From NCBI RefSeq assembly GCF_001598795.1, contig NZ_BCZP01000021.1, forward strand, positions 30,001 through 62,000: 32,000 nucleotides of DNA, in the 5' to 3' direction. A model generated the notes under the pieces. It worked only from the letters and a program-made list of their open reading frames with translations. It ran no database searches and was not told where the DNA came from. The translations under genes and the position numbers were made by a program. Numbering within the stretch: position 1 is the stretch's first letter; every line of letters begins with the position of its first letter. Below, one piece after another: positions 14,515-29,085 of this stretch. Source of the stretch: Delftia acidovorans NBRC 14950 (GTDB lineage Bacteria > Pseudomonadota > Gammaproteobacteria > Burkholderiales > Burkholderiaceae_C).

Positions 14515-17500
14515 CTAGGTTTTCTCGATGCGCGCAGGCAGGCCCTGGCGCACCGCGGCGCCCGACACCCAGTCCACCCACACGTTTTTGCAGCCGGGCC
14601 GCGTGGGATCGGCAAAGCCCAGGTCGTTGAGGTTCACGCCATTGGCATGCTCGGCGTTCACCGGCATGGGCTTGCCGTCAATGCTGTGGCGGCCTGCGCC
14701 CAGCTCGCGGTGGCCGTAGCCGTGCTCGATGGCCACGGTCCCCGGCATCACGCCGTCGCGCACCATGGCCACGGCCGTCACCGCGCCGCCCGGCGTGCGG
14801 ATGCGCACCGTGTCCCCGTTGGCGATGCCCAGCCGCTCGGCGTCATCGCGGTGCAGGGACACCGGGTTGTGCGGATGCACCTGGCGCAGCCGCGAGACGG
14901 CAATCGACATGGAACTCATCAGGTTGGACTTGTACGAGGTCAGCAGCAGCGGCCATTGCTGCTCGCCGAAATGCGTGCGCATGGCGCTGCCGTCGGCCAG
15001 CCGCGCCGGGTACCAGGTGGGGCAGCCGCTGTAGCGCTCGCCCGTCATGGCGTGGCGCATGCGGGCCAGCTCCTCGCTCCACACTTGCAGGGCAGGCGCG
15101 TGGGCCTTGCGGGTGTGGCCGTCCTTCCAGGCGTCTTCGATGCGGTCGAAGCGCCCGCCGCGCGTCAGCAGCATGGCCACCTGGCGCCATTCATCGTCCT
15201 TCAGGCGCTGGCGCAGCGCGGGCACCAGCCTGTCCACGCCGGTGATGGCGATGTCGTCATCGCTGGCCGCCGGCACGGGCTTGCCGCCTGCCCAGGCCAC
15301 GTTGGCCAGGGCATGGATGAAGAAGTCCTCGGCCGAGCGCAGCGCATGGGGCTGGCCCTGGGCGTCCTTGATGGCGGCCTCGCCAAAGCCGGGCAGGCCC
15401 AGCCGTTCTGCCACGGCGAAGAGGAAGCTCTCCACGTTCACGGGCTGGCCGCCGGCCGTGCGCGCCACGGCGGGCTGCACCACGGGCCAGCGCACGGTGG
15501 AGCTTTTGGCCACCACGTCGGCCCAGGGCGCCGAGATGCCCCAGCTCTCGTAGGTCACGGTATCGGGCACGATGAAATCGGCCAGCGCGCTGGTCTCGTT
15601 GATGAAGGGGTCGATGGAGACGATCAGCGGCAGCTTCTTCGGGTCCTTGAGATCGTCCACCAGCGCATTGCGAAAGCCCGCAATGCCGTAGACGGGGTTG
15701 CTCATGTGGTTGATCCAGGCCTTGGCGCGGTAGGGGTAGCCGGCCAGCGCGCTGGCCAGCATCTCGCTGGACAGGCCGCCCACGGCCGGGTACCACGGGG
15801 CCTGGGCGGCGGGGTAGTCCTTCGCGCCCTCTGGCTGGCCCTCGCGCTTGCGCTGGAATTCCGCGCTTTTCTCGTAGGGCTGGCGGTGGCGTGACAGCGC
15901 CAGGCCGCGCGGCTTGACCTTGCCGTCGAAGTTGGCGAAGTCGTAGCGCGGGCCGGGGCCGAAGGGGCCGAACGGGCCGGCATCCAGCACCAGGCCGCCC
16001 TGCACGTTGAGGTTGCCCACCAGGGTGTTGAGCATGCTGATGGCGTAGGCGGTGTAGAAGCCCGCGCCGCTCATGGTGCCGCCATGCGCATCGGCCACGG
16101 CGCGCTTGCCATGGCTGGTGAACTCGCGCGCCAGCGCCTCGATCTCGCCGCGCGCCACGCCGCACAGCGCCGCGTATTCGTCCAGTGTCTTGAGGCTGGC
16201 CTGCTCATGCAGCTTGGCCAGCGAGGAGCAGACCGACAGCTCGGGGGCCTGGTCCGCGCCTTCGGCCTTCAGGCCGGGCACGGCCACGCGGGTGCGCACC
16301 ATCAGCTGTGCAGGCTCGGCCTGGGTGTGCGGCGCCAGGCTGCCATCGGCACGCTGCACCACGAACACGTCCTGGGCCGGCTTGCCGTCTTCGGCTGGCG
16401 CGGGCAGGGCCCAGCCCAGGTCGGCGCCGCGCAGAAAGCTGCCATGGCGCGGGTGGCCGTGCTCGTTGACCAGCAGGTGCGTGGCATTGCTCCAGGACGC
16501 CTCGCCCGCCGCCTGCATGGCGGCCGGGCCGGGCTGGGCGAGAAAGTCCGTGTCATGGCGCGCCTCGTCCAGGATGACGCGGATCAGCGCCATGACCAGG
16601 GCCAGGTCGCTGGCCGGCTTGACGGCCAGCCAGCGGTTGCCGCTGCCCGCAGCCAGGCTGGACGAGGTCGGCAGCACGGGCGAGACCACCACGTAGCGGA
16701 AACGGTTGTCCTCGCGCGAGCGGGCCTCGGCCAGTTCGCGGCCCTGGCGCTGGAAGGGGTTGCCGGACTGCGCGGGCGCCGCGCCGATGAACAGGCCGAA
16801 GCTGGCATGGCTCCAGTCCGGCTTGCCGTGCGGCATGCCGGGCAGGTCGCCCAGGGCCGCTGCCGCGCCCACGCGAAAACTCTGGCCGCAGTAGGCGCCG
16901 TGGTTGCTGACGTTCACGGTGCCGAAGGACGGCCCCGCAAAGCGGCGCAGCAGCTGGGCGCGGCCTTCGTTGGAGGCGTCGGTCACCAGCAACTGGTTGG
17001 AGCGCGGGCCGAACTCGGGGTTGTCGGCGTCCAGCGGCGTCCTGGGGTCCCAGATGGCGCGCAGGCCCTCGACCTGGCCTTCGCCGAACAGATCGCCGCC
17101 CTCGCAGACTTCCTGCACCAGCTGCTCGAAGGAAATGCTCTGCCAGCGGCCGCTGCCGCGCGGGCCCACGCGCTTGAGCGGGGTGAGCACGCGGTGCGGC
17201 GCACTCTGGTGCTCCAGCATGGACGATCCGCGCGCGCAGGCCGTGGCCCGGCCCTCCAGGCCCAGTTCCTTGCCCAGTTTGGCGTAGACCTCGCGCACGG
17301 GTTCGTCCATGGCCGCTGGCCGCGTGGTGGCCAGCGGGTGGTAGGGGTTGCCTGCCACGCGCAGGATGCGGTTGCTGGCGGTATCGACACGCACGCGCAC
17401 GCCGCACTGCGTCCAGCAGCCCAGGCAGCTGGAGGGGCTGACCACCTGGCCGGGCTGGGTGGCGAGCGCGCCCGTGGCCGGGTCGATGCGGAACTCCGGC

Positions 17501-17715
17501 GTCAGCGAATTGCCGCGCGTGGCGCTGGCTGTGGGCGTGCCCGAGGTGCCTGCGACCAGGCCCTTGGCACCGCGCGCCAGTGTTTCACCGTAGCCGGCCG
17601 CAAAGGCGGCCAGCCCACCGGCGGTGAGGCCACCGCGCAGCAGCAGGCGGCGGCGGGCGGCCTCGGCATCCAGGGAATCTTCGGGAGCTTGGGGGAGTTT
17701 CTTCTTGTCGGTCAT
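14515..17715 (-). CDS. ttrA: Molybdopterin (Mo-bisPGD) oxidoreductase catalytic subunit, tetrathionate reductase TtrA-like, 1066 aa
   Basis: Twin-arginine signal (EAARRRLLLRGGLTAGGLAAFAAG). N-terminal FeS motif C-x2-C-x3-C (SCLGCWTQC). The size matches TtrA (about 1020 aa) rather than PhsA/PsrA (about 760 aa). Gene order B-C-A as in Salmonella ttrBCA. Confidence 0.7.
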   Translation of the reverse strand: MTDKKKLPQAPEDSLDAEAARRRLLLRGGLTAGGLAAFAAGYGETLARGAKGLVAGTSGTPTASATRGNSLTPEFRIDPATGALATQPGQVVSPSSCLGCWTQCGVRVRVDTASNRILRVAGNPYHPLATTRPAAMDEPVREVYAKLGKELGLEGRATACARGSSMLEHQSAPHRVLTPLKRVGPRGSGRWQSISFEQLVQEVCEGGDLFGEGQVEGLRAIWDPRTPLDADNPEFGPRSNQLLVTDASNEGRAQLLRRFAGPSFGTVNVSNHGAYCGQSFRVGAAAALGDLPGMPHGKPDWSHASFGLFIGAAPAQSGNPFQRQGRELAEARSREDNRFRYVVVSPVLPTSSSLAAGSGNRWLAVKPASDLALVMALIRVILDEARHDTDFLAQPGPAAMQAAGEASWSNATHLLVNEHGHPRHGSFLRGADLGWALPAPAEDGKPAQDVFVVQRADGSLAPHTQAEPAQLMVRTRVAVPGLKAEGADQAPELSVCSSLAKLHEQASLKTLDEYAALCGVARGEIEALAREFTSHGKRAVADAHGGTMSGAGFYTAYAISMLNTLVGNLNVQGGLVLDAGPFGPFGPGPRYDFANFDGKVKPRGLALSRHRQPYEKSAEFQRKREGQPEGAKDYPAAQAPWYPAVGGLSSEMLASALAGYPYRAKAWINHMSNPVYGIAGFRNALVDDLKDPKKLPLIVSIDPFINETSALADFIVPDTVTYESWGISAPWADVVAKSSTVRWPVVQPAVARTAGGQPVNVESFLFAVAERLGLPGFGEAAIKDAQGQPHALRSAEDFFIHALANVAWAGGKPVPAASDDDIAITGVDRLVPALRQRLKDDEWRQVAMLLTRGGRFDRIEDAWKDGHTRKAHAPALQVWSEELARMRHAMTGERYSGCPTWYPARLADGSAMRTHFGEQQWPLLLTSYKSNLMSSMSIAVSRLRQVHPHNPVSLHRDDAERLGIANGDTVRIRTPGGAVTAVAMVRDGVMPGTVAIEHGYGHRELGAGRHSIDGKPMPVNAEHANGVNLNDLGFADPTRPGCKNVWVDWVSGAAVRQGLPARIEKT

Positions 17716-17793
17716 GAAAGGCTTTCTGTGGCGCGGCCGGCCGGTGGCGGGCCGCGCTCCGTGAATGGGTGAGGGGTCGTCAGGGCGGCGGTG

Positions 17794-18837
17794 TCAGAGG
17801 GCGCGGGCCGCGGCCGAACGCGCGGGAAACAGCTCCAGCGCCCAGGTGGCCAGCGTCACAAGCGCGATGCACAGGCCGGCCACGCCCAGCATGCCCAGCA
17901 GGCCGTCGCCGCCCAGCGGCATGTGGTAGATGTACAGGCCCGCGCCGTACTTGGGCACGCCCTGCACGCCCATGAACAGCGCCCAGCGGAAGGCCCAGGC
18001 CGCGGCGGCCAGACCCAGCCCCAGGGCCAGCGTGTAGCGCGGGCAGACCATGCGCTGCCCACCCCGCACCAGGGCCCACAGCAGGGCGGCACCGGCCACG
18101 GCCGAGCCCAGCATGCTCAGGCGCCAGACCGGAAACTGCTGCCACAGCTGCAGCGCTGCCTGGAAGGAGCGGCCCTGGCCCAGCCAGCCGGCAACGGCCC
18201 AGACCGCCACCATGGCCAGCAGGCACAGCGCCAGCGCCAGGCCCAGCATGCGCAGCGCCTGCAGGGCGCCGGCATCGGGGCGGTGGCGGGCGGGCAGAAA
18301 GCGCGCCGTCACCAGCATGCAGCCCACCGTGGCCAGCCAGCCCGTGAGCGCCAGGTTCAGCGGCACCCACAGCGTGTTCCACAGCGGGCGCGAGCGCACG
18401 GCCATCAGCTCGGCGCCGGTATAGGCGGTGATGGTCAGCGCCGACACGGCCAGCAGCGGCGCAAGCCAGCGCAGCCACTGCGGCCGGCCCAGCCACCAGG
18501 CCAGCACGAAGGCCAGCGCCAGTCCCACGAAGGCCGGCAGCAGCAGCGCGCCCACCGACATCCACGACCACGGCGTGAAGTGCGCATAGAAATGCCAGAA
18601 GCGCGCAGGCTGGTGCAGGTCGGCCAGCAGCGACACGGGCGCGGCGATGGCGCTGACGGCCAGCACCAGCACGGCGGCCGGCAGCAGGCGCGCCATGGCG
18701 CTGGCACGCGGCGCCCAGGCGCAGGCGGCGGCCAGCAGGGCGGCGCCCGTGGCAATGCCGGCCAGGAAGAAGTACTGCACGGCCCAGGGCAGCCAGGCCG
18801 ATTCGTAGGCGGGGGTCAGGAGTTCGACGATGTGCAT
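17794..18837 (-). CDS. ttrC: NrfD/PsrC-family integral membrane quinol-interacting subunit, TtrC-like (347 aa)
   Basis: Track ORF 17794..18936. ATG at 18837 (MHIVELLTPAYESAWLPWAVQYFFLAGIA...) follows AAGGAG, 16 nt after the ttrB stop. About 9 hydrophobic helices. Confidence 0.7.
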   Translation of the reverse strand: MHIVELLTPAYESAWLPWAVQYFFLAGIATGAALLAAACAWAPRASAMARLLPAAVLVLAVSAIAAPVSLLADLHQPARFWHFYAHFTPWSWMSVGALLLPAFVGLALAFVLAWWLGRPQWLRWLAPLLAVSALTITAYTGAELMAVRSRPLWNTLWVPLNLALTGWLATVGCMLVTARFLPARHRPDAGALQALRMLGLALALCLLAMVAVWAVAGWLGQGRSFQAALQLWQQFPVWRLSMLGSAVAGAALLWALVRGGQRMVCPRYTLALGLGLAAAAWAFRWALFMGVQGVPKYGAGLYIYHMPLGGDGLLGMLGVAGLCIALVTLATWALELFPARSAAARAL

Positions 18838-18853
18838 GGGGTGCTCCTTGCGT

Positions 18854-19699
18854 TCAGTGGGAAGTGACCAGCCGCACGCTGGCCTGCCCGTCCACGCCGT
18901 CGACGAAGGCGTCGGGCAATCCCAGGTAGTACACATGCGGGTCCGTGCCCATGGCGGGCTTGAGCACCTTGAGGTCCTTGGCGTGCTCGCGCATGCGCTG
19001 GCGGATCTCGCTGCCCTCGTCGTTGAGGTCGCCGATCACGCGGGCGCCGCCCACGCAGCTTTCCACGCAGGCCGGCAGCAGGCCGGCTTCCAGGCGGTGC
19101 TCGCAGAAGGTGCACTTGTCGGCGGTCTGCGTCTCGTGGTTGATGAAGCGTGCGTCATAGGGGCAGGCCTGCACGCAGTAGCCGCAGCCCACGCAGCGCT
19201 CGTTGTCCACCAGCACGATGCCGTCGCTGCGCTGGAAGGTGGCCTGCACCGGGCAGACCGGCACGCAGGGCGGGTTGTCGCAGTGGTTGCACAGGCGCGG
19301 CAGGTTGAGCATGGCCGGCGGCAGGTCCTCGTTGCCCGCGTGCTGCACCTCGTACTGCAGCACCGTGGTGCGGAACTGGCCCAGCGGCGGCAGGTTCTCC
19401 ATGGAGCAGCTCACCGTGCAGGCCTGGCAGCCTATGCAGCGGCGCAGGTCCACCAGCATGCCGTAGCGCTTGCCGGCCTCGCCGGGACGGCGCGGCGGCT
19501 GGAAACCCGGGGTGCCGGGCGCGGCCGCCGCCACGGGCAGGGCCACGGCCGCCATGGCAGCGGCCAGCAGATCCTGCAGGAAGCCGCGCTTGCCTGCGGC
19601 GGGCTGCGCATGGGCGGCGGCGCGGGCGGGGATGTCCTGGGAGGAGGGCTTGCAGCTGCAGTCGTTGCAGCCGCTGCCGGCGCGGGATGTTTTTGGCAT
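18854..19699 (-). CDS. ttrB: 4Fe-4S ferredoxin-type electron-transfer subunit, TtrB-like
   Basis: Track ORF 18854..19750 starts at a TTG; the in-frame ATG is at 19699. Cys clusters CIGCQACTVSC, CNHCDNPPCVPVCP, CVGCGYCVQACP and CTFC...C. Tat-like motif GKRGFLQDLL with Lys-Arg instead of Arg-Arg, as described for Salmonella TtrB. Confidence 0.75.
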   Translation of the reverse strand: MPKTSRAGSGCNDCSCKPSSQDIPARAAAHAQPAAGKRGFLQDLLAAAMAAVALPVAAAAPGTPGFQPPRRPGEAGKRYGMLVDLRRCIGCQACTVSCSMENLPPLGQFRTTVLQYEVQHAGNEDLPPAMLNLPRLCNHCDNPPCVPVCPVQATFQRSDGIVLVDNERCVGCGYCVQACPYDARFINHETQTADKCTFCEHRLEAGLLPACVESCVGGARVIGDLNDEGSEIRQRMREHAKDLKVLKPAMGTDPHVYYLGLPDAFVDGVDGQASVRLVTSH

Positions 19700-19751
19700 G
19701 GCCTGTCTTTCATCGTCCTGCGGCCACGGAGGGTGGTCGCTCAAACTCAAT

Positions 19752-19772
19752 AAAGCATTAAAAATATGCTTT
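19752..19772. promoter_or_regulatory. Inverted repeat AAAGCAT-N7-ATGCTTT in the AT-rich ttrB leader
   Basis: Read directly: AAAGCAT at 19752-19758 and ATGCTTT at 19766-19772. Lies downstream of the predicted ttr transcription start, so it could be an operator or a 5'-UTR hairpin. Confidence 0.4.
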
Positions 19773-19778
19773 TTATAT

Positions 19779-19800
19779 TGAATTTAATATATGAAATTCA
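19779..19800. promoter_or_regulatory. Inverted repeat TGAATTT-N8-AAATTCA overlapping the predicted ttr -10 region
   Basis: Read directly: TGAATTT at 19779-19785 and AAATTCA at 19794-19800. Confidence 0.35.
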
Positions 19801-19827
19801 GGGCCTTGGTGGCTTGATGTGAGTCAA
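19786..19827 (-). promoter_or_regulatory. Class-II FNR/CRP-family-dependent promoter for ttrBCA: FNR box TTGACTCACATCAA plus a -10 TATATT
   Basis: Plus strand 19814-19827 reads TTGATGTGAGTCAA (9/10 match to TTGAT-N4-ATCAA). On the minus strand, TATATT (19791..19786) lies 30-35 nt downstream of the box centre. That puts it at -12..-7 if the box is centred at -41.5. Confidence 0.6.
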
Positions 19828-19904
19828 GCAATGGGCTTGTAAAGCGCCACCGACTGCCTGCCATGGACAGGCGCCCAAGGCAGTCCATAGCGTGTGGCGC
19901 AGGG

Positions 19905-19921
19905 ATTAAGACGGGGTTAAC
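19905..19921 (+). promoter_or_regulatory. PmrA-box-like direct repeat ATTAAG-ACGGG-GTTAAC
   Basis: Two TTAA-core hexamers with 11-bp periodicity in the ttrB/orf154 intergenic region, 112 nt upstream of the ATG at 20033. See the findings for recurrence at 22752 and 27068. Confidence 0.45.
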
Positions 19922-19930
19922 AGGGTGACT

Positions 19931-19947
19931 GCATTCCTCGGGAATGC
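19931..19947. promoter_or_regulatory. Inverted repeat GCATTCC-TCG-GGAATGC
   Basis: Perfect 7-bp arms read directly, 10 nt downstream of the TTAA repeat and upstream of orf154. Confidence 0.35.
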
Positions 19948-20032
19948 GGGGCGCGTATCGGAAATCACCCTCTTGTTTCCGTGCGCGGCCCCGGTCTACG
20001 CTGCTTGTGTTGCCACTGCCAAGGAGTTCTCC

Positions 20033-20497
20033 ATGAACCATGCCCTGAACAGCCTTGCTTCGGAACTGGACCTTGCCGCCGAAGCCGGCGAGCATCTGAG
20101 GCTGCAATTCACACAGGCCTGCGTGGACCGCATCGCGCACCTGCTGGAAGACCCGGACGTCATCCGCTGCGCACAAGGCCTTCGCCGCTACCTGGACGGC
20201 CAGATCGACAGGCAGGAGCTGGACCGCCTGGCCCGCGAGGCGGCCAGCCTGGCCAACCATCACCAGGGATCGCGCTCCCTCGACGGCTGCGGCCATGCCG
20301 CCGTGTCCGCCACCTATGCCACGGCCCATGGGCTGGCGGGCCGGGCGCTGCAGGCGGCCGACTATGCGGCCTATGCCATGGTCTATGGCGAGGGCGGCCA
20401 CGGCGCCGTCACGGACCGCGAATCGTTCGAGCCTGAATACCAATGGCAGGCCCGCTGCCTGGCCTCGCTGGCGCAGGCCGCTCAGCAGCGCACGTAG
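20033..20497 (+). CDS. Hypothetical all-alpha protein (154 aa); weak resemblance to Imm5-type putative immunity proteins
   Basis: Track ORF 19925..20497. ATG at 20033 lies 8 nt after AAGGAG. The Ala/His-rich helical repeats (HAAVSATYATAHGLAGRALQAADYAAYAMVYGEGG ... EYQWQARCL) resemble that family, but only from memory of its pattern. Confidence 0.6.
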   Translation: MNHALNSLASELDLAAEAGEHLRLQFTQACVDRIAHLLEDPDVIRCAQGLRRYLDGQIDRQELDRLAREAASLANHHQGSRSLDGCGHAAVSATYATAHGLAGRALQAADYAAYAMVYGEGGHGAVTDRESFEPEYQWQARCLASLAQAAQQRT

Positions 20498-20898
20498 CAC
20501 CAGCCCGACTGCTGCAGCAGGGCCAGTGACTCGATGCCGCCCTGCGGCAGCACGCGCATGCCGGCAGGCGCCTCGCGGCCCAGCTTCCTGAGCGTGTTCG
20601 GGCAGACCAGCGCATGGGCCAGGGCCTCTGCATCCAGATGCTGCGGCGTGCCCGGCGCGGCGTCCAGCAGCGCCTCGACGGCCGGGCCGTTGATGACGAT
20701 GCGGACCTCGGCACCGGGCCGGTCCTGGCGCAGGTTGGCCAGATTGCTGCGTGCACGGGCCAGGGCGCCGGGCGTGGGCGCATGCAGCACGATGCGCAGC
20801 GGCGGCGCATCCGGCCTGGCGGGGAACAGGTCGCTCCAGTCGCTGGAGGATGTGGAAGCGGCGGGAGAACGGCTTGTGCTCATGGTCGACCCCGTCAT
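20482..20898 (-). CDS. DsrE/DsrF-like family protein (COG1416-type sulfur-relay-like fold)
   Basis: LRIVLHAPTPGALARARSNLANL...EVRIVINGPAVEALL...VCPNTLRKLG...VLPQGGIESLALLQQSGWCYVR matches the COG1416/DsrE-like pattern, including the conserved Cys-x-NT. The ATG at 20898 overlaps the dsbG stop (ATGA). The N-terminus is Ser/Thr-rich with no obvious signal peptide. Confidence 0.7.
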   Translation of the reverse strand: MTGSTMSTSRSPAASTSSSDWSDLFPARPDAPPLRIVLHAPTPGALARARSNLANLRQDRPGAEVRIVINGPAVEALLDAAPGTPQHLDAEALAHALVCPNTLRKLGREAPAGMRVLPQGGIESLALLQQSGWCYVRC

Positions 20899-21701: not shown

Positions 21702-22696
21702 GAACATTCCTTCAGATGCTGGGCCAGGCTGGCGCGCGACAGCTCGCCCATGCGCATGCCGCACAGCCGGCCGTCGGCGCCATAGAAATAGGTGGAAGGC
21801 AGGCCTCGCTGGCGCCAGTGCCGGCCGGCCTGCTGCTGCGGGTCGAACAGCACCTGGGCCAGCGGCAGCGGGGCTGCTGCCTGCTCGCGCCGCAGGTAGC
21901 CCATCACGGTCTCGGCAGACTCGCCCTGGTTGATCCAGATGAAGCGCACATCGGGCCGCTGCTGCTGGGCCTGGGCCAGCACCGGCATCTCGCGTCGGCA
22001 GGGCGGGCACCAGGTGGCCCAGAGGTTGATGACCATGGGCTTGCCATCGGCCTGCTGCAACTGCTGCAGCGAGACCGGCTGCGCCTGCCCGTTGACCAGG
22101 GTGAAGGCCGGCAGGGCCGGTGCATCTGCGGAGGGCAGCGCCTGCAGCAGGCTGCCCAGCACCAGCAGGGCCGCCCCCGCGCCCAGCGCCAGCCCTGTGG
22201 CGCGGCGCAGCACCGGGGAGCGGCGGCTGCGCCACAGCATGTACAGCAGCGCGGCCAGCAGGCCGGCCCACAGGTTCCATCCCCCGTCGCGGATATCGAT
22301 GATGCGGCCTGCGAAGGCCGGCATCCCGCTCCAATCCCAGGGGGCCGGCGCGACCTCGGTCCACCACTGCGCGACATAGGCCAGGCGCGCCGCCAGCAGG
22401 CCGGCCAGGGTGCTTTGCCAAAGCAGCGCATCCACGGCCTGGCCCGTGCGCCTTTCGTTCCTGCGCGCCAGCCACTGCGCCAGCAGCCAGGCCAGCATGG
22501 CCACCACCACGCCCATCGGCAGGACCAGCGGCCCCAGCGCCAGGCTGGCGGGCAGGTGCAGCCAGGTGCCCAGCGCCGATAGCGCTGACGGCCCGCCAGG
22601 CTCGGCCGGTCCGGCAAGAACAGGCGAAGGCGCCAGCAGCAGGCCAGCAAGCAAGGGCAGGAAGGACGAAAGAAGAGGGGATGACCGGAGATGCAT
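21698..22696 (-). CDS. TlpA-family thioredoxin-like disulfide reductase fused to an N-terminal multi-TM domain
   Basis: C-terminal Trx fold with the INLWATWCPPCRREMP active site. The N-terminal half has 4-5 hydrophobic helices. The track start at 22702 is a TTG; the in-frame ATG is at 22696. Confidence 0.8.
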   Translation of the reverse strand: MHLRSSPLLSSFLPLLAGLLLAPSPVLAGPAEPGGPSALSALGTWLHLPASLALGPLVLPMGVVVAMLAWLLAQWLARRNERRTGQAVDALLWQSTLAGLLAARLAYVAQWWTEVAPAPWDWSGMPAFAGRIIDIRDGGWNLWAGLLAALLYMLWRSRRSPVLRRATGLALGAGAALLVLGSLLQALPSADAPALPAFTLVNGQAQPVSLQQLQQADGKPMVINLWATWCPPCRREMPVLAQAQQQRPDVRFIWINQGESAETVMGYLRREQAAAPLPLAQVLFDPQQQAGRHWRQRGLPSTYFYGADGRLCGMRMGELSRASLAQHLKECS

Positions 22697-22751
22697 GGGC
22701 AAGGAGTTTCAGCCATGCAGGCTGACAGGTCGTGGATGCTGGCAGCGGGGA

Positions 22752-22768
22752 ATTAACGGGGGGTTAAC
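22752..22768 (-). promoter_or_regulatory. PmrA-box-like direct repeat (minus strand GTTAAC-CCCCC-GTTAAT; plus strand ATTAAC-GGGGG-GTTAAC)
   Basis: Two TTAA-core hexamers with 11-bp periodicity, 50-70 nt upstream of the tlpA-like start. Has the same NTTAAC-N5-NTTAAT polarity relative to its downstream operon as the site before tsdB. Confidence 0.45.
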
Positions 22769-22781
22769 GGCCTCATGGCCA

Positions 22782-23981
22782 TCAGGCTGCGACCGGTCCA
22801 TTTCGCCCAGCCAATCCCATGGCCGCAGACAGCAGCAAGGCCGCAGCGGCCAAGCCGCCAGACAGCCAGAGCGTGGCGTGCAGCCCCCAGCCATCGACCA
22901 GTTGGCCGCCCGCCCATGAGCCCAGCGCAATACCGATGTTGAAGACGCCAACGTACAGCGCCGTGGCAATTTCCACGGCGCGTGGCGCAGCCTGCATCAT
23001 CCAGGTCATCAGGCCCACCGATACGCCGCCGTAGGCCAGGCCCCAGACCAGCAGCACGGCGCCACCACCGGTTGGCGAGCCGCCCACGGACAGGAACAGC
23101 ACAGGCGCCAGCAGCAGGCCCAGGGCGATCGCCGCCAGACTCGGCGCCGTGCGGCGCGCCGCGATGATGCCCGCCAGGAAGTTGCCCGCAATGCCCGCGA
23201 TGCCGTAAGCCAGCAGCAGCGCGCTCATCCATTGCGCATCGAACCCCGACATCGTCAGCAGCAACGGGCGCACGAAGGTGAAGGACATGAAATGCCCGGC
23301 CACCAGCAGCAGCGTCAGTGCCAGCCCGGCCTGCAGCCTGCGGTTGGCCAGCTGATGGCTGAACTGGCGCAGGCTGGCCGAGCCTGTGGCAGGCAGGGCG
23401 GGGAGAACGGCCACGTGCAGCGCCAGCACCAGTGCGCTGAAGCCTGCCATGCCACCAAAGGCCCAGCGCCATCCCGCGAAATCGCCGATCAGCGCGCCCA
23501 GCGGCACGCCCAGCACCGAGGCTGCCGCCACGCCGCCAAAGATGATGGAGGTCGCCAGGCCCATCGACGCCTGGGGTACCAGCCGTGCCGCCAGCCCGCC
23601 CGCGATTGCCCAGATGCCGCCCATGCAAAAGCCCACCAGGACGCGCGCGGCCAGCAGCCAGATCAGCGACGGCGCCAGCGCCGAGGCCAGGTTGGCCAGC
23701 ACGAGCAGGGCCAGCAGTCCGCACAGGATGCGGCGCCGGTCCATGCCGCCCGCCGCCATCACCACCAGCGGCGCGAACAGCGCGGCCAGCAGCGCCGGCA
23801 GCGAGATCATCAGGCCGGCCCTGCCCATGGAGGTGCCCAGGCTGCCGGCAATCGATGTGAGCAGGCCGACCGGCAGCATTTCCGTGGTCACCACGGAAAA
23901 GGTGGCCAGGCCCACGGCGGACACGGCCAGCCACGGGCGGCGCGCGGCGGGTTCGGGCCGCGTGGAGGAAGACGAATTCAT
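22782..23981 (-). CDS. MFS transporter, DHA1-type 12-TMS exporter (sugar/purine efflux-like)
   Basis: 399 aa with 12 hydrophobic segments. N-terminus LAVSAVGLATFSVVTTEMLPVGLL. Divergent from a TetR regulator. Confidence 0.85.
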   Translation of the reverse strand: MNSSSSTRPEPAARRPWLAVSAVGLATFSVVTTEMLPVGLLTSIAGSLGTSMGRAGLMISLPALLAALFAPLVVMAAGGMDRRRILCGLLALLVLANLASALAPSLIWLLAARVLVGFCMGGIWAIAGGLAARLVPQASMGLATSIIFGGVAAASVLGVPLGALIGDFAGWRWAFGGMAGFSALVLALHVAVLPALPATGSASLRQFSHQLANRRLQAGLALTLLLVAGHFMSFTFVRPLLLTMSGFDAQWMSALLLAYGIAGIAGNFLAGIIAARRTAPSLAAIALGLLLAPVLFLSVGGSPTGGGAVLLVWGLAYGGVSVGLMTWMMQAAPRAVEIATALYVGVFNIGIALGSWAGGQLVDGWGLHATLWLSGGLAAAALLLSAAMGLAGRNGPVAA

Positions 23982-24042
23982 GGTCCAGATCCCTTCAAAC
24001 AGGTGGGGGGTGTTGCGCCGCCGTCGCGGGACAGAGAAAATA

Positions 24043-24111
24043 CATACGCTGCGTATGAATAGAATCCTATATACATACGTGGCGTATGTAAATAATCATG
24101 CACGCCGTATG
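24043..24111. promoter_or_regulatory. Three tandem palindromic operators CATACG-N3-CGTATG (the third is imperfect) in the MFS/TetR divergent region
   Basis: CATACGCTGCGTATG at 24043-24057, CATACGTGGCGTATG at 24074-24088, and CATGCACGCCGTATG at 24097-24111. The last one abuts the TetR RBS AAGGAG. Confidence 0.65.
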
Positions 24112-24125
24112 TAAGGAGATTGGCC

Positions 24126-24713
24126 ATGGTTCGCCGCACCCGCGCCGAGATGGAAGAAACCCGCGCCACGCTGCTGGCCACGGCCCGCAAGGCCTTTGGA
24201 GAGCAGGGCTACGCCGATGCCTCCATGGACGATCTCACCGCGCAGGTGGGCCTGACGCGGGGCGCGCTGTACCACCATTTCGGCGACAAGCAGGGCCTGC
24301 TGGCGGCCGTGGTCGAGCAGATCGATGCCGAGGTGGATGAACGCCTGAAGGCCATCACCGCCCATGCCCAGGATCCCTGGCAGGGCTTTCGCAGTCGCTG
24401 CCAGGCCTACCTGGAAATGGCGCTGGAGCCTGAAATCCAGCGCATCGTGCTGCGCGATGCGCGCGCGGCTTTGGGCGGTGCGCTGCCGCAATCGCAGCGC
24501 CACTGCATTGCGTCCATGCAGGCACTGATTGCGGACCTCATGGCGCAGGGCATCGTGGCCCGGGCCGATCCGCAGGCGTTGGCATCGCTGATCTACGGCA
24601 GCCTGGCCGAAGCGGCTTTCTGGATTGCCGAGGGCGAGGACGCCGACCTGCGGCTGGAGCGCGGCGCGGCGGCGCTGGACCTGCTGCTGGGCGGGCTGCT
24701 GGCCCGGCCCTGA
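24126..24713 (+). CDS. TetR/AcrR family transcriptional regulator
   Basis: The track start at 24120 is a TTG directly after the RBS. ATG at 24126 lies 8 nt after AAGGAG. HTH: RATLLATARKAFGEQGYADASMDDLTAQVGLTRGALYHHFGDKQGL. Confidence 0.85.
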   Translation: MVRRTRAEMEETRATLLATARKAFGEQGYADASMDDLTAQVGLTRGALYHHFGDKQGLLAAVVEQIDAEVDERLKAITAHAQDPWQGFRSRCQAYLEMALEPEIQRIVLRDARAALGGALPQSQRHCIASMQALIADLMAQGIVARADPQALASLIYGSLAEAAFWIAEGEDADLRLERGAAALDLLLGGLLARP

Positions 24714-24863
24714 GCGGGCCACCTGGCCGCATTCTTGTGCACCCGCCTGCGAAATTCGGCACGCCGCCGCGCCAGCGCGGCAAATCTGCGATGCTCAGTC
24801 GCTTTTCGTTCCCGACTTGAATACAGACGGCGGGGCCTGGCGCCAGGCCCTGCGGACAACAAC

Positions 24864-25526
24864 ATGCATGTTCTCTTGGTGGAAGACAACGCGCTGGTGG
24901 CCAGCGGCGTGCGAGCCGGCCTGCAGCTGCAGGGCTTTGGCGTGGATACCGTGGCCTCGGCCGGGCAGGCGGATGCGGCCATCCGTTCCTCGCATTTCGA
25001 TGCCTGCGTGCTGGACCTGGGCCTGCCGGACGAGGATGGCCTCTCGCTGCTGGCGCGCTGGCGCGGCCAGGGCCTGCAGGTGCCCGTGCTGGTGCTGACG
25101 GCGCGCGATGCCGTGTCCCAGCGCATCGAAGGCCTGCAGACCGGCGCCGACGATTACCTGGTCAAGCCCTTTGACCTGCACGAACTGGCGGCGCGCCTGC
25201 ATGCGCTGCTGCGCCGCGCGGCCGGCCGCAGCGTGGACTGGATCGAGCTGGGCGAGGTGCGCATCAATCCCGCTGCAGGCCATATCCAGCGCCAGGGCCG
25301 CACGGTGGAGCTGTCGCGCCGCGAGTGGTCGCTGCTGCGCGCGCTGCTGCAGTCGCCGGGCCGCATTCTCAGCACCGAGCAACTGCGCGACAGCCTCTAC
25401 GGCTACAGCCAGGACGTGGAGAGCAATGCCGTCAACGTTCATGTGCACCATCTGCGCCGCAAGCTGGGCCATGAACTGGTGGAGACGGTGCGCGGCGAGG
25501 GCTATCGCCTGGGCCTGCACCCATGA
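24864..25526 (+). CDS. OmpR-family response regulator, PmrA(BasR)/QseB subgroup
   Basis: Track ORF 24735..25526; ATG at 24864 gives MHVLLVEDNALV... Receiver motifs DLGLPDEDG, VLVLTARD and GADDYLVKPF. The wHTH SNAVNVHVHHLRRKLG is almost identical to E. coli QseB SNAVEVHVHHLRRKLG. Confidence 0.85.
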   Translation: MHVLLVEDNALVASGVRAGLQLQGFGVDTVASAGQADAAIRSSHFDACVLDLGLPDEDGLSLLARWRGQGLQVPVLVLTARDAVSQRIEGLQTGADDYLVKPFDLHELAARLHALLRRAAGRSVDWIELGEVRINPAAGHIQRQGRTVELSRREWSLLRALLQSPGRILSTEQLRDSLYGYSQDVESNAVNVHVHHLRRKLGHELVETVRGEGYRLGLHP

Positions 25527-27073
25527 TGCGCAGCCTGCGCGTGCGCCTGCTGGCATGTCTGTGCCTGGCGCTGTGCACGCTGTGGGGCGGGGTGGCGGCC
25601 TGGATGTTCTCCGACATGCGCAACGAACTGCGCACCGTGCTGGATGACCGGCTGATCGCCTCGGCGCGCATGGTGGCCGGCATCGTCCACCAGTTCCGGC
25701 CTGCCCGGGAGCTGCCGCAGGACTGGAGCCCCATGCTCAACGTGATCGCGCGCGACGGCGTGGCCTGCGAGGTCAGCCTGGTGCGCGGCGAGGTCCAGCC
25801 CGTGCGCCCCGAATCGGCCCTGCCGCAGGTGCTGGCCAAGACCGAGGGCAGTCCCGTGTTCCCGCAGAGCATGCCGCTGGGCTTCTCGACCATCATCAAG
25901 GGCGGCAAGCCCTGGCGCACCTATGTGCTGGAGGACCACGGCGTGCGCATCGCCACGGCCGACCGCATCGATGTGCGCGAGGGCCTGATCCACGGCTTTG
26001 CCTACACCATCGTCCTGCCCTTCGTGCTGGCGCTGCTGGCCAGCATGGGGCTGATGTGGTGGGCCGTGACCCAGGGCCTCAGGCCGCTGGAGGCCCTGCG
26101 GCGCGAACTGGCGCGCCGCCCGCCCGGCGACGACTCGCCCGTGGCCCAGGGCCTGCAGACGCGCGAGCTGGCGCCGCTGGTGGGCACGCTCAACCAGCTG
26201 CTGCACCGCGTGCGCGCCGCCATCGACCGCGAGCGCCGCTGGAGCGACGACGCCGCCCATGAGTTGCGCACGCCGCTCACCGCCATCAAGACCCATGTGC
26301 AGGTGGCGCAGATGGCGCTGGCGGCGCCCGGCATGCCTGCCGGCCTTCTGGCCGCGCCGCCCGGCTCCATGGCCCGCGATTCGCTGGCCCAGGCGGGCGA
26401 GGGCGTGGAGCACCTGCAGCACACGCTGGAGCAGTTGCTGCTGCTGGCGCGGCTGGAGCAGCATGAACCGGGTGCCGCCAATGCGCTGGCCTGCGGCGAT
26501 GCGCCTGCCGATGCGCTGCAGGCGCTGGACAAGGCCTGGCAACTGGCGGTGAATGCCGTGAGCGCCGGAGCACCGGCGCCGGCGCAGCGCCAATGGTTGG
26601 ACACGCACCAGCAGCCCGGCAACGGCGCCTGGCCGCTGGCCATCTCCGAGCCCCTGCTGGTCTCGGCCCTGCGCAATCTGCTGGAAAACGCCCTGCGCCA
26701 TGCGCCGCAGCATGCCGTGGAACTGGCGGTGCGGCCCATTGGCGCCATGCCGGGCAAGACACAGCAGCCGGGCTCAGGCTATGTGGAGTTCACCGTGGCC
26801 GACCATGGCCCGGGGCTCAGCGCCGAGGAATGCGAAGAGGCCACGCGCCGCTTTTGGCGCAAGCGTCCCCAGGAGCATGGCAGCGGCCTGGGCCTGCCCA
26901 TCGTGCAGCGCATCGCCGAATGCGCAGGCGGCTGCCTGCTGCTGCAGCCGCGCAGCCTGTGGCGGCCCGAGGAAGGCCAGGCCAGCGGCCTGGTCGCGCG
27001 CCTGTACCTGCCGCTGGCGGACGGCCCGGGCCCGCAGGCCCCGGCCGCCGGCCCATTAGCGCCGGCCCATTAA
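25523..27073 (+). CDS. Sensor histidine kinase (QseC/BasS-like)
   Basis: ATGA overlap with the regulator stop. Two TM helices flank a periplasmic domain of about 140 aa. H-box AAHELRTPLTAI, N-box LRNLLENALRHAP, G-boxes DHGPGL and GSGLGLPIV. Confidence 0.85.
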   Translation: MMRSLRVRLLACLCLALCTLWGGVAAWMFSDMRNELRTVLDDRLIASARMVAGIVHQFRPARELPQDWSPMLNVIARDGVACEVSLVRGEVQPVRPESALPQVLAKTEGSPVFPQSMPLGFSTIIKGGKPWRTYVLEDHGVRIATADRIDVREGLIHGFAYTIVLPFVLALLASMGLMWWAVTQGLRPLEALRRELARRPPGDDSPVAQGLQTRELAPLVGTLNQLLHRVRAAIDRERRWSDDAAHELRTPLTAIKTHVQVAQMALAAPGMPAGLLAAPPGSMARDSLAQAGEGVEHLQHTLEQLLLLARLEQHEPGAANALACGDAPADALQALDKAWQLAVNAVSAGAPAPAQRQWLDTHQQPGNGAWPLAISEPLLVSALRNLLENALRHAPQHAVELAVRPIGAMPGKTQQPGSGYVEFTVADHGPGLSAEECEEATRRFWRKRPQEHGSGLGLPIVQRIAECAGGCLLLQPRSLWRPEEGQASGLVARLYLPLADGPGPQAPAAGPLAPAH

Positions 27074-27085
27074 CGCCGGCTTAAT
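27068..27085 (+). promoter_or_regulatory. PmrA-box-like direct repeat (C)ATTAAC-GCCGG-CTTAAT overlapping the kinase stop codon, upstream of tsdB
   Basis: TTAA cores at 27070-27073 and 27081-27084 (11-bp periodicity). CTTAAT is a perfect YTTAAK half-site. A degenerate third copy, CATTAG, sits 14 nt upstream (27054-27059). About 160 nt before the tsdB start. Confidence 0.45.
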
Positions 27086-27241
27086 CTCGGTTCCGTATCG
27101 TGCGGGCCTGGCTGGCCAGCCCTGCGGGCATTGCGCCTTGCGGGGCGGCGGCCGGTATCCCTATTCGATCCTGTCCGCCGCAGCCGTGCGCTCCTGGGTG
27201 CGTGGCGCGGACGCATGGCAGGGCAAATGCCTCTTCCCACG

Positions 27242-27991
27242 ATGATCCGCATGAACAAACAGACCCTGTCCCGGTCGAGCATCGCCATCGGCATCTGCAT
27301 GCTGATGGGCAGCGCCTGGGCGCAAGACGCCGCGCCCAAGGCAGCAGCGCCCACAGCTGCGGTGCAAGGCAGTGCAGCAGCCGGCCAGAAAATCGCCCAG
27401 TCGGGCACGCCCCAGGGTGCGGCGGCATGTGCCACCTGCCACGGCGCCAAGGGCGAGGGCATGGCGGGCTTTCCGGCCCTGGCCGGCCAGCACGCCGGCT
27501 ATCTGGCGCGCCAGCTCCAGCACCTGGCCGACGGCAGCCGCCAGGCCCCCGTGATGGCGCCCATGGCCAAGGCCCTGTCGGCCCAGGACCGCGCCGATGT
27601 GGCCGCCTATTACGCCAGCCTGCCGCTGCCCATCCAGCCCGTGCGCGGCCCGCTGCCCAAGGGCAAGGACGATGACGGCGCCTGGCTGGTCGAGCGCGGA
27701 CGCTGGGCGGACGGCATTCCCGCCTGTGCCCAATGCCACGGCCCGGGCGGCGTGGGCGTGGGCGCCGATTTCCCGGCCATCGGCCACCTGACGGCCGACT
27801 ACATGCAAAGCCAGGTCGCCGCCTGGAACAAGGGCCAGCGCGAGGCTGGCCCGCTGGGCCTCATGGGCAAGGTCGCGCAAAAGCTCACGCCCGCGGACAT
27901 CCAGGCCGTGGCGGCCTACTACGCCCGCCTGCATGGCGCCAGCCCCAGCACCAGCACCGCAGCCACGGCCTCCGCGCCAGCCAAACCCTGA
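27242..27991 (+). CDS. tsdB: Dihaem cytochrome c (c4-type), TsdB-like electron acceptor of thiosulfate dehydrogenase
   Basis: Track ORF 27131..27991; start at ATG 27242 or 27251 (MIRMNKQTLSRSSIAIGICMLMGSAWA-QD signal peptide). Two CxxCH motifs (CATCHG, CAQCHG), each followed by a Met-containing distal segment. Immediately upstream of the tsdA-like gene. Confidence 0.7.
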   Translation: MIRMNKQTLSRSSIAIGICMLMGSAWAQDAAPKAAAPTAAVQGSAAAGQKIAQSGTPQGAAACATCHGAKGEGMAGFPALAGQHAGYLARQLQHLADGSRQAPVMAPMAKALSAQDRADVAAYYASLPLPIQPVRGPLPKGKDDDGAWLVERGRWADGIPACAQCHGPGGVGVGADFPAIGHLTADYMQSQVAAWNKGQREAGPLGLMGKVAQKLTPADIQAVAAYYARLHGASPSTSTAATASAPAKP

Positions 27992-29040
27992 TGGACCGGG
28001 AGCCGAACATGTCCGACACACAACCCACCCGCGCCTCCAAAAACTCCAATACCGCCGAGTACGCCGTCGTCGCCTGCCTGTTCGCCGGCCTGGCGGGCGC
28101 GCTCGCCTATGGCATGTACATCAGCCAGCCAGACATGCCACCTGCGCCGGCCCGCGTGGGCGCGGTCCCCGCTGCGGCTGCCACCGCAGCCAGGGCCGAT
28201 GCAAATGCGAATGCCCAGGTCACCTCCCAGGCCGTGAAAGTGGCTGCCGACGGCGGCGCCTTCACGCCCCCCGGCGCCCGCGACATCCCCGACACGCCCA
28301 TGGGCGAGTGGATTCGGCGTGGCGAGGCCATCTTCCTGCGCACGCCGGCCAACGCAGTGGGCTTTTCGGGCAACACCCTCAACTGCGTGAACTGCCACCT
28401 GGACGCAGGCCGGCTCAAGGGCGCCGCACCCATGTGGGGTGCCTACCCGCTGTACCCTGCTTACCGCAAGAAGACCAACCACGTGGACACCTTCGCCGAG
28501 CGCGTGCGCGGCTGCTTCATGTACAGCATGAACGGCAAGGCCCCCGACGACGGCCACGACATCCTCGTGGCGCTGGAGGCCTATGCCTACTGGATGGCAC
28601 AGAAGGCGCCCACGGGCGAGAAGCTGCCCGGTGCGGGCTTCACCAAGGTGGGCAAGGCCGCGCAGGAGCCCAGCTTCGAGCGCGGCGCCAAGGTCTACGA
28701 GGCCAAGTGCGCGCTGTGCCACGGCCCTCAGGGCCAGGGCCAGGAAGTAGGCGGTGTGACCGTGTTCCCGCCGCTGTGGGGCAAGCAGTCCTACAACTGG
28801 GGCGCGGGCACGCACGAAGTGGACAAGGCCGCCAGCTTCATCAAGGGCAACATGCCCTACGGCAACCCCACGCTGGATGACCAGGAGGCCTGGGACGTGG
28901 CCACCTACATCAACAGCATGGAGCGCCCCCAGGACCCGCGCTTCACCGGCAACGTGGCCGACACGCGCAAGCAGTTCCACGACAACCCGTACTCGCTGTA
29001 CGGCACCGAGGTCAACGGGCGGCTGCTCAAGGGTCTTTGA
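27991..29040 (+). CDS. tsdA: Thiosulfate dehydrogenase TsdA-like dihaem cytochrome c
   Basis: Track ORF 27733..29040; in-frame ATG at 27991 (1-nt overlap with the tsdB TGA) or at 28009. Hydrophobic N-terminal anchor. Haem motifs CVNCH and CALCH. A Cys in ERVRGCFMYSMNG sits where TsdA/SoxA-type proteins carry the haem-ligating active-site Cys. YPAYRKK, FPPLWG..S.NWGAG and RPQDPRF are as I recall for the TsdA family. Confidence 0.7.
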   Translation: MDREPNMSDTQPTRASKNSNTAEYAVVACLFAGLAGALAYGMYISQPDMPPAPARVGAVPAAAATAARADANANAQVTSQAVKVAADGGAFTPPGARDIPDTPMGEWIRRGEAIFLRTPANAVGFSGNTLNCVNCHLDAGRLKGAAPMWGAYPLYPAYRKKTNHVDTFAERVRGCFMYSMNGKAPDDGHDILVALEAYAYWMAQKAPTGEKLPGAGFTKVGKAAQEPSFERGAKVYEAKCALCHGPQGQGQEVGGVTVFPPLWGKQSYNWGAGTHEVDKAASFIKGNMPYGNPTLDDQEAWDVATYINSMERPQDPRFTGNVADTRKQFHDNPYSLYGTEVNGRLLKGL

Positions 29041-29053
29041 GCGGATCGGACAG

Positions 29054-29085
29054 GCAACGGCAGGCCGGGCGCAGGCCTGCGTTGC
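29054..29085 (+). terminator. Hairpin after tsdA (GCAACG-g-CAGGCC / GGCCTGCGTTGC)
   Basis: 12-bp stem with one bulge and a 7-nt loop, 14 nt after the tsdA stop. No clear U-tract. Confidence 0.4.

Follow-up and report, generated by a model that had tools for sequence, protein, structure and literature searches.

The 32,000-nt stretch of Delftia acidovorans NBRC 14950 analysed here (NZ_BCZP01000021.1, positions 30,001-62,000; hereafter 'the window', to which all coordinates are relative) encodes a tetrathionate reductase, TtrBCA, a thiosulfate dehydrogenase, TsdBA, a thiol-redox operon, tlpA-dsbG-dsrE, and a two-component system (TCS) of the OmpR/PmrA type, made of a response regulator (RR) and a sensor histidine kinase (HK). 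We propose, with a probability of roughly 0.65, that these genes form a tetrathionate/thiosulfate module that includes thiol-repair genes and is controlled by the PmrA-like TCS together with an FNR-type regulator. The genes themselves are ordinary and already annotated; what is added here is a specific regulatory model.

According to this model, TtrBCA would be a membrane-bound, periplasm-facing molybdoenzyme that reduces tetrathionate to thiosulfate with electrons from quinol, and TsdBA a periplasmic dihaem pair that oxidises thiosulfate to tetrathionate and delivers the electrons via TsdB to the aerobic chain. The TlpA-like, DsbG and DsrE-fold proteins may keep periplasmic cysteines reduced against thiol-reactive tetrathionate. 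The RR and its dedicated kinase would stand in for the TtrSR sensor system: the RR would bind predicted nTTAAY-N5-nTTAAT direct repeats at ttrB, tlpA and tsdB, co-regulating the three operons, and the FNR-type site would restrict ttrBCA to low oxygen. That tetrathionate or thiosulfate is the signal is suggested more tentatively.

The case for joint control begins with a shared repeat. Exactly three TTAA-N7-TTAA sites occur in the window, compared with 0.00 in 100 shuffles, and each lies upstream of, and is oriented with, ttrB, tlpA or tsdB (Table 1). The ttrB site reads GTTAAC-N5-CTTAAT and the tlpA site GTTAAC-N5-GTTAAT; all three sites are identical in other Delftia strains, and the repeats match the XTTAAY-N5-XTTAAY format of the pmra-box (PMC10570014). 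On sequence grounds, the ttrB, tlpA and tsdB operons probably share one predicted regulon.

Two samples of loci served for comparison: 80 ttr loci, obtained by scanning one genome per species with TtrB, and a second, independent sample that started from homologues of the kinase. Neighbour genes in these related loci were called by homology clustering. Equivalents of the ttrB-upstream box were found in 12 related Comamonadaceae loci, in most of which it was the sole such site in about 20 kb. Among the TtrB-derived loci of at least 0.55 G+C there were 15 sites in 646 kb; 12 lay within 450 bp upstream of ttrB, and one of the 15 was upstream of a tlpA-ttrBCA operon (L006). The box was present in all seven TCS-bearing loci with upstream sequence, in three of 30 loci that have no TCS nearby, and in no locus linked to TtrSR. 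For Comamonas testosteroni (L086), only two sites were found in 21.7 kb, one in the tlpA-RR gap and the other in the HK-tsdB gap, and the distant ttrBCA of this genome still carries the box and an FNR-like site. A contig resembling C. composti (L087) has boxes ahead of ttrB and between tlpA and the RR gene, and a Melaminivora locus (L089) has a single site, upstream of ttrB.

The FNR-like site (19814-19827), located between box 1 and ttrB, is the only match to TTGAY-N4-RTCAA in the window. The PmrA-like and FNR-like boxes are 77 to 81 bp apart in nine Comamonadaceae loci, and 94 to 95 bp apart in C. testosteroni and Delftia. The C. composti-like locus also has the two boxes upstream of ttrB, at a spacing of about 130 bp. 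Loci of Achromobacter, Bordetella and Alcaligenes have the FNR-like box alone. Salmonella ttr requires Fnr, a requirement that the FNR-like box upstream of ttrB parallels.

Gene linkage points in the same direction. Homologues of the RR and HK (56 to 61% and 43 to 59% identity, respectively) directly adjoin ttrBCA, on the same strand, in five loci, those of Comamonas jiangduensis, Acidovorax defluvii, Diaphorobacter caeni and two metagenome-assembled genomes. Over the loci examined, the pair was recorded directly beside ttrBCA in L010, L011, L012, L018, L036 and L089, and within 2 to 5 kb of it in L013, L029 and L038. The C. testosteroni locus has the thiol-redox genes (dsrE-like<-dsbG<-tlpA) divergent from RR->HK->tsdB->tsdA, at 45 to 83% identity to the Delftia proteins; ttrBCA is found on the same scaffold, at a distance of 190 kb. 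On the C. composti-like contig the order is ttrA<-ttrC<-ttrB<-dsrE<-dsbG<-tlpA, divergent from RR->HK, and in Melaminivora it is ttrBCA-RR-HK-tlpA. Homologues of the tlpA-like gene adjoin ttr in L006, L011, L019, L087 and L089. The TCS is the constant element, and the genes that accompany it come from one pool of three gene sets. An initial annotation of this DNA had suggested that the tetrathionate genes are 'differently wired'. This reading is supported, in that ttrBCA, tsdBA and tlpA-dsbG-dsrE have, across Comamonadaceae, a TCS of the OmpR/PmrA type as their conserved partner, and boxes are present at all three operons.

TtrSR, which had been noted as missing, was indeed not found. A tblastn search with NCBIfam-verified Salmonella TtrS and TtrR gave no match in the window, where the only TCS is the single RR-HK pair at 24864-27073 (+). 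Nor was TtrSR seen near ttrBCA, out to 10 kb, in the Delftia loci, and the window has no copy of the Vibrio TtrR box, GTGG-N4-CCAC. TtrSR was adjacent in all loci of Enterobacteriaceae, Vibrionaceae and Pasteurellaceae, and in only 9 of the 43 loci of betaproteobacterial type (34 of 43 being without it), so that its absence is clade-wide and not a peculiarity of Delftia. Two candidates for a missing regulator were rejected: a TtrSR hidden in the lower-G+C stretch after ttrA, where a hypothetical gene of 401 codons and a 96-aa open reading frame (ORF) have no similarity to TtrS or TtrR, and the ccm genes downstream of Achromobacter ttrA (ccmC, ccmE and ccmF). A set of Bordetella, Achromobacter and Alcaligenes loci (L014, L022-L024, L027, L030, L031, L042 and L043) has neither TtrSR nor a PmrA-like TCS within 10 kb.

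The best PDB match of the RR is PmrA/BasR of Klebsiella pneumoniae (4S04, 8JO2; E 7e-51), which covers residues 1-217, the full length. S187, N188, V192 and H195 of the RR align to the base-contacting T187, N188, V192 and H195 of PmrA (contacts per PMC10570014). Scores remain below the NCBIfam equivalog cut-offs for the RR (PmrA, 228.9 against 330; QseB, 227.9 against 345) and for the HK (QseC, 135 against 475; PmrB, 130 against 314). The pair thus scored appears to belong to the PmrA/QseB subfamily, short of orthology to PmrA or QseB. The HK has Pfam matches to HisKA, HATPase_c and 2CSK_N, a HAMP-HisKA-HATPase core, and 30% identity to E. coli QseC and BasS. Its periplasmic motifs IARDGVACEVS, KGGKPWRTYV and TADRxDVRE are conserved in homologues and missing from QseC and BasS, and the single cysteine of its periplasmic domain, Cys82, is invariant in 118 homologues (46 to 98% identity).

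A speculative extension, which we consider doubtful, is that the HK is a new cysteine-based periplasmic tetrathionate sensor, in which tetrathionate would switch the kinase by modifying Cys82, a residue of the IARDGVACEVS motif, through thiosulfonation or an inter-protomer disulfide. The co-regulated DsbG and TlpA-like reductases would then reset the sensor and repair other periplasmic thiols, and TsdBA would supply the signal from thiosulfate. If true, this redox-sensing circuit would be self-contained, would differ in its chemistry from TtrS, which binds a ligand, and could serve as an orthogonal biosensor for tetrathionate.

At its 3' end, the HK gene contains 14-bp units, GCCGGCCCATTA(A/G)C, with one half-site, TTAAC or TTAGC, in each. 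The window has two such units (27040-27085) and another Delftia locus, L082 (4950-5010), has three; both the distal half of box 3 and the HK stop codon come from the last unit. The kinases of different Delftia strains are 507 to 516 aa long.

The enzymes, Ttr and Tsd alike, are very probably those assigned. TtrA scored 1353.6 bits on the NCBIfam TtrA model, over positions 5-1021 of 1022; PhsA was next best (144.7 bits), and the DmsA family and ArrA models gave 112.8 and 53.8 bits. It is 51% identical to Salmonella TtrA over 1033 aligned positions, with the CxxCxxxC and HGAYCG motifs kept, and 48 to 50% identical to Vibrio TtrA; the nearest solved structures, PsrA and ArrA, reached only E 1e-12 and 3e-11. 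By profile hidden Markov model (HMM) and by identity, the catalytic subunit groups with TtrA. Its twin-arginine translocation (Tat) motif is ARRRLLLRG. TtrB (390.3 bits on NCBIfam TtrB) has four Cys groups and the Tat motif AGKRGFLQDL, with KR. TtrC matches Pfam NrfD and NCBIfam TtrC (198.1 bits) and has nine hydrophobic segments, collinear with the nine of Salmonella TtrC in a Kyte-Doolittle scan, which is approximate. TtrB and TtrC are 65% and 36% identical to their Salmonella counterparts. The initial description of this system, a 1066-aa Tat-exported catalytic subunit of the molybdenum bis(pyranopterin guanine dinucleotide) (Mo-bisPGD) type, an NrfD-type membrane subunit and a four-cluster ferredoxin with a KR Tat motif (GKRGFLQDL), in B-C-A order, stands in every part.

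The B-C-A gene order was observed in all 80 related loci, Salmonella included. TtrA identity was 63 to 72% in Comamonadaceae and Alcaligenaceae, and 46 to 53% in Enterobacteriaceae, Vibrionaceae and Pasteurellaceae. The KR motif was rejected as an oddity of this particular TtrB: it is present in 59 of the 80 loci and is a known TtrB hallmark, a textbook exception among Tat substrates (PMC6708511). The testable Ttr traits listed in PMC12949373 were all found, namely B-C-A order, Tat signals on A and B, a nine-helix TtrC, and grouping with Salmonella TtrA. One locus, L004, from a genome labelled Pseudomonas putida, has a ttrBCA of betaproteobacterial type (TtrB 73%, TtrA 65%) with an RR Tat motif, which may reflect horizontal transfer or a mislabelled assembly.

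For TsdA, the best solved relative is the TsdA half of the Marichromatium TsdBA fusion, 5LO9 (E 1.9e-78; about 1e-43 for A. vinosum TsdA), and for TsdB the best PDB match is the TsdB half of the same fusion (E 7.7e-33), followed by cytochromes c4. TsdB has two CxxCH motifs, and the haem motifs of TsdA are CVNCH and CALCH. TsdA scores 30.7 bits on Pfam SoxA-TsdA_cyt-c (gathering cut-off 27) and has an N-terminal hydrophobic anchor and an Ala/Pro-rich linker. A c4-type dihaem cytochrome directly upstream of a TsdA-like protein with a candidate Cys ligand (RGCFMYSMNG) had been reported at the outset; both are present, and the Cys aligns, as distal ligand of haem 1, to Cys96 of A. vinosum and Cys138 of C. 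jejuni. This region reads RVRGCFMYSMNG in Delftia, RIGDCFERSLNG in 4V2K and RIQGCFRYSMN in 5LO9. The haem 2 Met is likewise conserved (Met209 in A. vinosum, Met255 in C. jejuni), FIKGNMPYG aligning with FIKHKMPLG, and, as in the enzymes of C. jejuni and M. purpuratum, Asn stands where A. vinosum has Lys208 (PMC5146829). Two further details reported at the outset, a stop/start overlap between tsdB and tsdA and a length of 349 aa for TsdA, apply to the ATG at 27991; they do not apply to the publicly annotated ATG at 28009, which has the better ribosome-binding site (GGGAG), gives 343 aa and leaves a 17-nt gap after tsdB.

The thiol-redox operon announced between Ttr and Tsd is present, with two amendments: the DsrE-like label holds at the fold level only, and a TetR/MFS insertion shares the interval. 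DsbG is clear (319.4 bits on its NCBIfam model, cut-off 124; CPYC motif). The TlpA-like protein matches Pfam Redoxin and AhpC-TSA (above cut-offs) and LGT, and has a WCPPC motif; the NCBIfam ResA, DsbE and TlpA models all score it below their cut-offs. The DsrE-like protein had no Pfam or NCBIfam match, even at E = 5, and fold prediction was therefore used. Its AlphaFold2 model, with a predicted local distance difference test (pLDDT) value of 90.9, matched 2PD2 (E 7.5e-6, template-modelling score 0.78), YchN (1JX7) and DsrEFH (2HY5) in Foldseek, and Cys99 is invariant in 34 homologues. The TlpA-like protein of C. testosteroni (L086, 7732-9135) is 467 aa long and has a DsbD_N domain fused ahead of the LGT-like membrane part; this fusion hints that the family takes part in a transmembrane or inter-domain electron relay.

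The enzyme assignments have to be weighed against other activities. Arsenate reductases of Ttr-like type, which have an arsenic-binding GR motif, are known, as are Ttr homologues with other functions (PMC12949373); the TtrBCA of V. parahaemolyticus can reduce thiosulfate as well (PMC11293645); and the Delftia proteins miss the NCBIfam equivalog cut-offs (1353.6 against 1750 for TtrA, 390.3 against 416 for TtrB, 198.1 against 314 for TtrC). These cut-offs look tuned to close, mainly enterobacterial, relatives, and RefSeq and JGI name the proteins tetrathionate reductase subunits despite the sub-cut-off scores. Given the full-length identity to the characterised Salmonella TtrA and to Vibrio TtrA, the PhsA and ArrA scores set beside that of TtrA, and the presence of all the testable Ttr-specific traits, it is highly improbable that the enzyme is primarily something other than a tetrathionate reductase, perhaps a thiosulfate or arsenate reductase of Ttr-like clades. 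TsdBA, for its part, might be mainly a second tetrathionate reductase, as TsdA is in Campylobacter, and the module would then be reductive only. TsdA enzymes are reversible, and the K-x-N-M environment of haem 2 is as in the reductase-biased C. jejuni enzyme (PMC5146829). However, the M. purpuratum TsdBA, the best match, has Asn-Met at haem 2 too, and V. parahaemolyticus TsdBA oxidises thiosulfate (PMC11293645). TsdB is the electron acceptor for TsdA and is encoded directly upstream here, whereas the organisms that respire tetrathionate by means of TsdA carry tsdA without tsdB (PMC12949373, PMC5146829). Because the TsdB partner is encoded, TsdBA most likely oxidises thiosulfate to tetrathionate in Delftia, and we consider a purely reductive module quite improbable. 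The presence of TsdB and the FNR-like box upstream of ttrB are the only features that suggest a bidirectional function, oxic and anoxic, of the whole.

With regard to regulation, the TCS could be a general sensor of envelope thiol oxidation, metal or pH stress, with tlpA-dsbG-dsrE as its core regulon, ttrBCA and tsdBA at its periphery, and a signal that is neither tetrathionate nor thiosulfate. The regulator resembles PmrA, and kinases of the PmrB type respond to Fe3+, Al3+ or low pH. Of the additional genes found with the TCS, the tlpA-like one recurs most often, and in C. terrigena (L090) the orthologous TCS stands alone, with no box and no ttr or tsd genes within 10 kb. Yet the HK has a periplasmic domain that bears no relation to its counterparts in QseC and BasS, several loci have ttrBCA as the only neighbour of the TCS, and the box precedes ttrB in Delftia and in the 12 related Comamonadaceae loci, mostly as the only site over some 20 kb. 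We therefore regard a general stress sensor as unlikely. A merely coincidental neighbourhood, in which ttrBCA, tsdBA and the thiol-redox genes have no functional connection and lie close together by chance, could explain why tsdBA lies within 10 kb in none of the 43 closest ttrB-bearing species representatives, and why the unrelated TetR/MFS and hyp154 genes are found inside the block. It is hardly credible in view of the same rare box at all three operons, with 0 expected by chance, and of the recurrence of this TCS with different selections from these gene sets in Melaminivora, C. testosteroni and the C. composti-like locus; in Vibrionaceae, moreover, tsdBA directly adjoins ttrBCA and is co-regulated with it (PMC11293645).

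Several observations weigh against the model as a whole, the missed Ttr cut-offs and the solitary TCS of C. terrigena among them. The distance from the ttrB box to the start codon is about 205 to 220 bp, and the FNR-like site follows the box some 90 bp downstream, a layout unlike that of the enterobacterial pmra-box, which overlaps the -35 element. No sigma-70-like -10 element was detected beside any of the three boxes in a consensus scan, and the scan of 13000-29500 for sigma-70 and terminator consensus gave nothing above chance. The association of box and TCS given above (Fisher P = 1.2e-5; 37 betaproteobacterial loci, 7/0/3/27) overstates the support, because related loci are phylogenetically non-independent. 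Finally, Delftia is usually described as an aerobe, which makes the role of a respiratory tetrathionate reductase uncertain.

The features of the module are listed in Table 1. The G+C content of the window is about 70%, and as a result raw ORF lists were crowded with spurious frames; gene calls were settled by third-position G+C, Pfam and NCBIfam scans, and public gene calls. All the module genes already carry names in public records. TtrA is identical to KFJ12778.1/QQB47898.1 ('tetrathionate reductase subunit A'), the other module proteins match the same strains in an exact-sequence look-up, and the same DNA is also present in a Logan assembly.

Table 1. Genes and predicted sites of the tetrathionate/thiosulfate region (window coordinates)
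Feature	Position	Strand	Description
ttrA	14515-17715	-	Mo-bisPGD catalytic subunit, 1066 aa, Tat leader
ttrC	17794-18837	-	NrfD-type membrane anchor, 347 aa annotated; longest ORF runs to 18936
ttrB	18854-19699	-	Four-cluster ferredoxin, 281 aa annotated; longest ORF runs to 19750
FNR-like box	19814-19827		TTGACTCACATCAA read towards ttrB
PmrA-box-like direct repeat 1	19905-19921	-	GTTAACCCCGTCTTAAT, upstream of ttrB
hyp154	20033-20497	+	154-aa hypothetical between dsrE-like and ttrB, opposite strand; no family match
dsrE-like	20482-20898	-	DsrE/YchN fold, invariant Cys (LxCPNTL)
dsbG	20895-21701	-	Periplasmic thiol:disulfide interchange protein, CPYC
tlpA-like	21698-22696	-	Probable membrane-anchored TlpA/ResA-like thioredoxin, WCPPC, LGT-like N-terminal membrane domain
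PmrA-box-like direct repeat 2	22752-22768	-	GTTAACCCCCCGTTAAT, 55 nt to tlpA start codon
MFS exporter	22782-23981	-	Pfam MFS_1
TetR repressor	24126-24713	+	Pfam TetR_N/TetR_C_41
Response regulator (RR)	24864-25526	+	OmpR/PmrA-type
Sensor histidine kinase (HK)	25523-27073	+	516 aa, own type of periplasmic domain, invariant Cys82
PmrA-box-like direct repeat 3	27069-27085	+	ATTAACGCCGGCTTAAT, overlaps HK stop codon; 144 nt to tsdB start
tsdB	27230-27991	+	Dihaem cytochrome c4-type electron acceptor, 253 aa annotated
tsdA	28009-29040	+	Dihaem thiosulfate dehydrogenase/tetrathionate reductase, 343 aa; alternative start 27991 gives 349 aa

The ttrBCA and tsdBA operons are 7.5 kb apart and divergently transcribed. 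Other Delftia strains have a compact 13-kb block that lacks both TetR/MFS and the hypothetical genes after ttrA, so these are insertions specific to the strain of the window. The MFS/TetR pair is missing from four other Delftia assemblies, in which RR and tlpA are divergent neighbours, and TetR/MFS were rejected as module members, being a strain-specific insertion between these two genes. The MFS-TetR intergenic region (23982-24125) has three copies of the palindrome ACATACG-N4-CGTATGT, likely TetR operators. In the compact locus L082, the RR-tlpA spacer is 807 bp long (7194-8000), with AT-rich segments and a small ORF encoding 60 aa of hydrophobic character; box 2 is located at its tlpA-proximal end. 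The hyp154 gene is found in all Delftia loci examined and is missing from the C. composti-like locus; it overlaps the 3' end of dsrE-like by 16 nt, and one source names it 'putative immunity protein'.

The stretch downstream of ttrA, 12782-14391, has a lower G+C (0.62, compared with about 0.70) and encodes the 401-aa hypothetical protein, with no family match, and the 96-aa ORF, with weak zinc-ribbon-like matches; an OEP gene directly follows ttrA in other Delftia strains. On the other side, a DUF2325-Fur family-nitroreductase operon (29254-31093) comes directly after tsdA and is kept in other Delftia strains. This operon appears unrelated to the module, and the remaining genes of the window are unrelated to it: AsmA, an MFS transporter, BKACE, SDR, GntR, RluA, a TetR-MFS-MFP-OEP efflux set, and a VapBC-like toxin-antitoxin pair at 6060-6715, with a MazE/AbrB-type antitoxin and a PIN-domain toxin. 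No RNA genes were detected in the window (Rfam at gathering thresholds, ARAGORN).

Tetrathionate respiration and the TtrSR sensor are central to gut-inflammation biology, and TtrSR and ThsSR are used as engineered inflammation reporters. If a PmrA-type system of Comamonadaceae responds to tetrathionate or thiosulfate, one and the same metabolic module has come under a regulator of an unrelated class, and this would offer a defined operator as well as a second sensor chassis that is orthogonal. It would also tie tetrathionate metabolism to periplasmic thiol-repair proteins, a connection not reported for TtrSR-controlled systems in the literature examined. The control of many TtrSR-less ttrBCA loci of Burkholderiales would then be explained, with a PmrA-like TCS and FNR in the Comamonadaceae group, and an FNR-like site only in the other group (Achromobacter, Bordetella and Alcaligenes). 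No paper on a Delftia or Comamonadaceae tetrathionate reductase was found in a literature search that was partly too broad to be informative. The use of a PmrA-like TCS in place of TtrSR, its own operator, and the inclusion of tlpA-dsbG-dsrE in the module appear to be unreported.

The pairing of Ttr and Tsd, in contrast, is not new, since it has been shown experimentally in the ttrRS-ttrBCA-tsdBA circuit of V. parahaemolyticus, described in 2024: TsdBA makes tetrathionate from thiosulfate, TtrS senses it, and TtrR activates the ttrBCA and tsdBA operons via the GTGG-N4-CCAC box (PMC11293645). We also observed direct ttrBCA-tsdBA adjacency in a Photobacterium (L054) and a Vibrio (L068) locus. 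Common to the V. parahaemolyticus circuit and Delftia are the encoding of both enzyme systems together, the TsdB partner, a low-oxygen context implied for Ttr, and one TCS over both systems, which is only predicted in Delftia. The Delftia regulators differ, being an OmpR/PmrA-type RR and a different kinase instead of a NarL/FixJ-type TtrR and a binding-protein-like TtrS, as does the box, TTAA-N7-TTAA. Delftia also adds the tlpA-dsbG-dsrE operon, and its two enzyme systems are set apart and divergent. With ttrRS-ttrBCA of Salmonella enterica, the Delftia genes share the B-C-A order, the KR Tat motif on TtrB and an FNR-type site that fits the Fnr dependence. They differ from it in having no TtrSR, either in the window or, in the Delftia loci, up to 10 kb from ttrBCA; Salmonella, for its part, has no TsdBA (PMC11293645) and no linked thiol-redox operon.

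The Delftia TsdA has in common with the enzymes of M. purpuratum (5LO9), A. vinosum and C. jejuni the dihaem arrangement, the His/Cys active-site haem and the haem 2 Met. It differs from them by the N-terminal anchor and Ala/Pro-rich linker, and from A. vinosum TsdA by the Asn in place of Lys208. TsdB is, like that of M. purpuratum, a c4-type dihaem partner, encoded by a gene separate from tsdA where M. purpuratum has a fusion. As for the regulators, the likeness to PmrAB (BasRS) and QseBC of Enterobacteriaceae comprises the full-length similarity to PmrA, the N188, V192 and H195 residues, the XTTAAY-N5-XTTAAY format (PMC10570014) and a 2CSK_N-type kinase N-terminus. The Delftia pair differs from them by its scores below the equivalog cut-offs, by a kinase with 30% identity and a different periplasmic domain containing Cys82, and by a ttrB box far upstream of the start codon and not at -35. 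Its predicted targets are sulfur-redox genes, and not lipid A modification genes.

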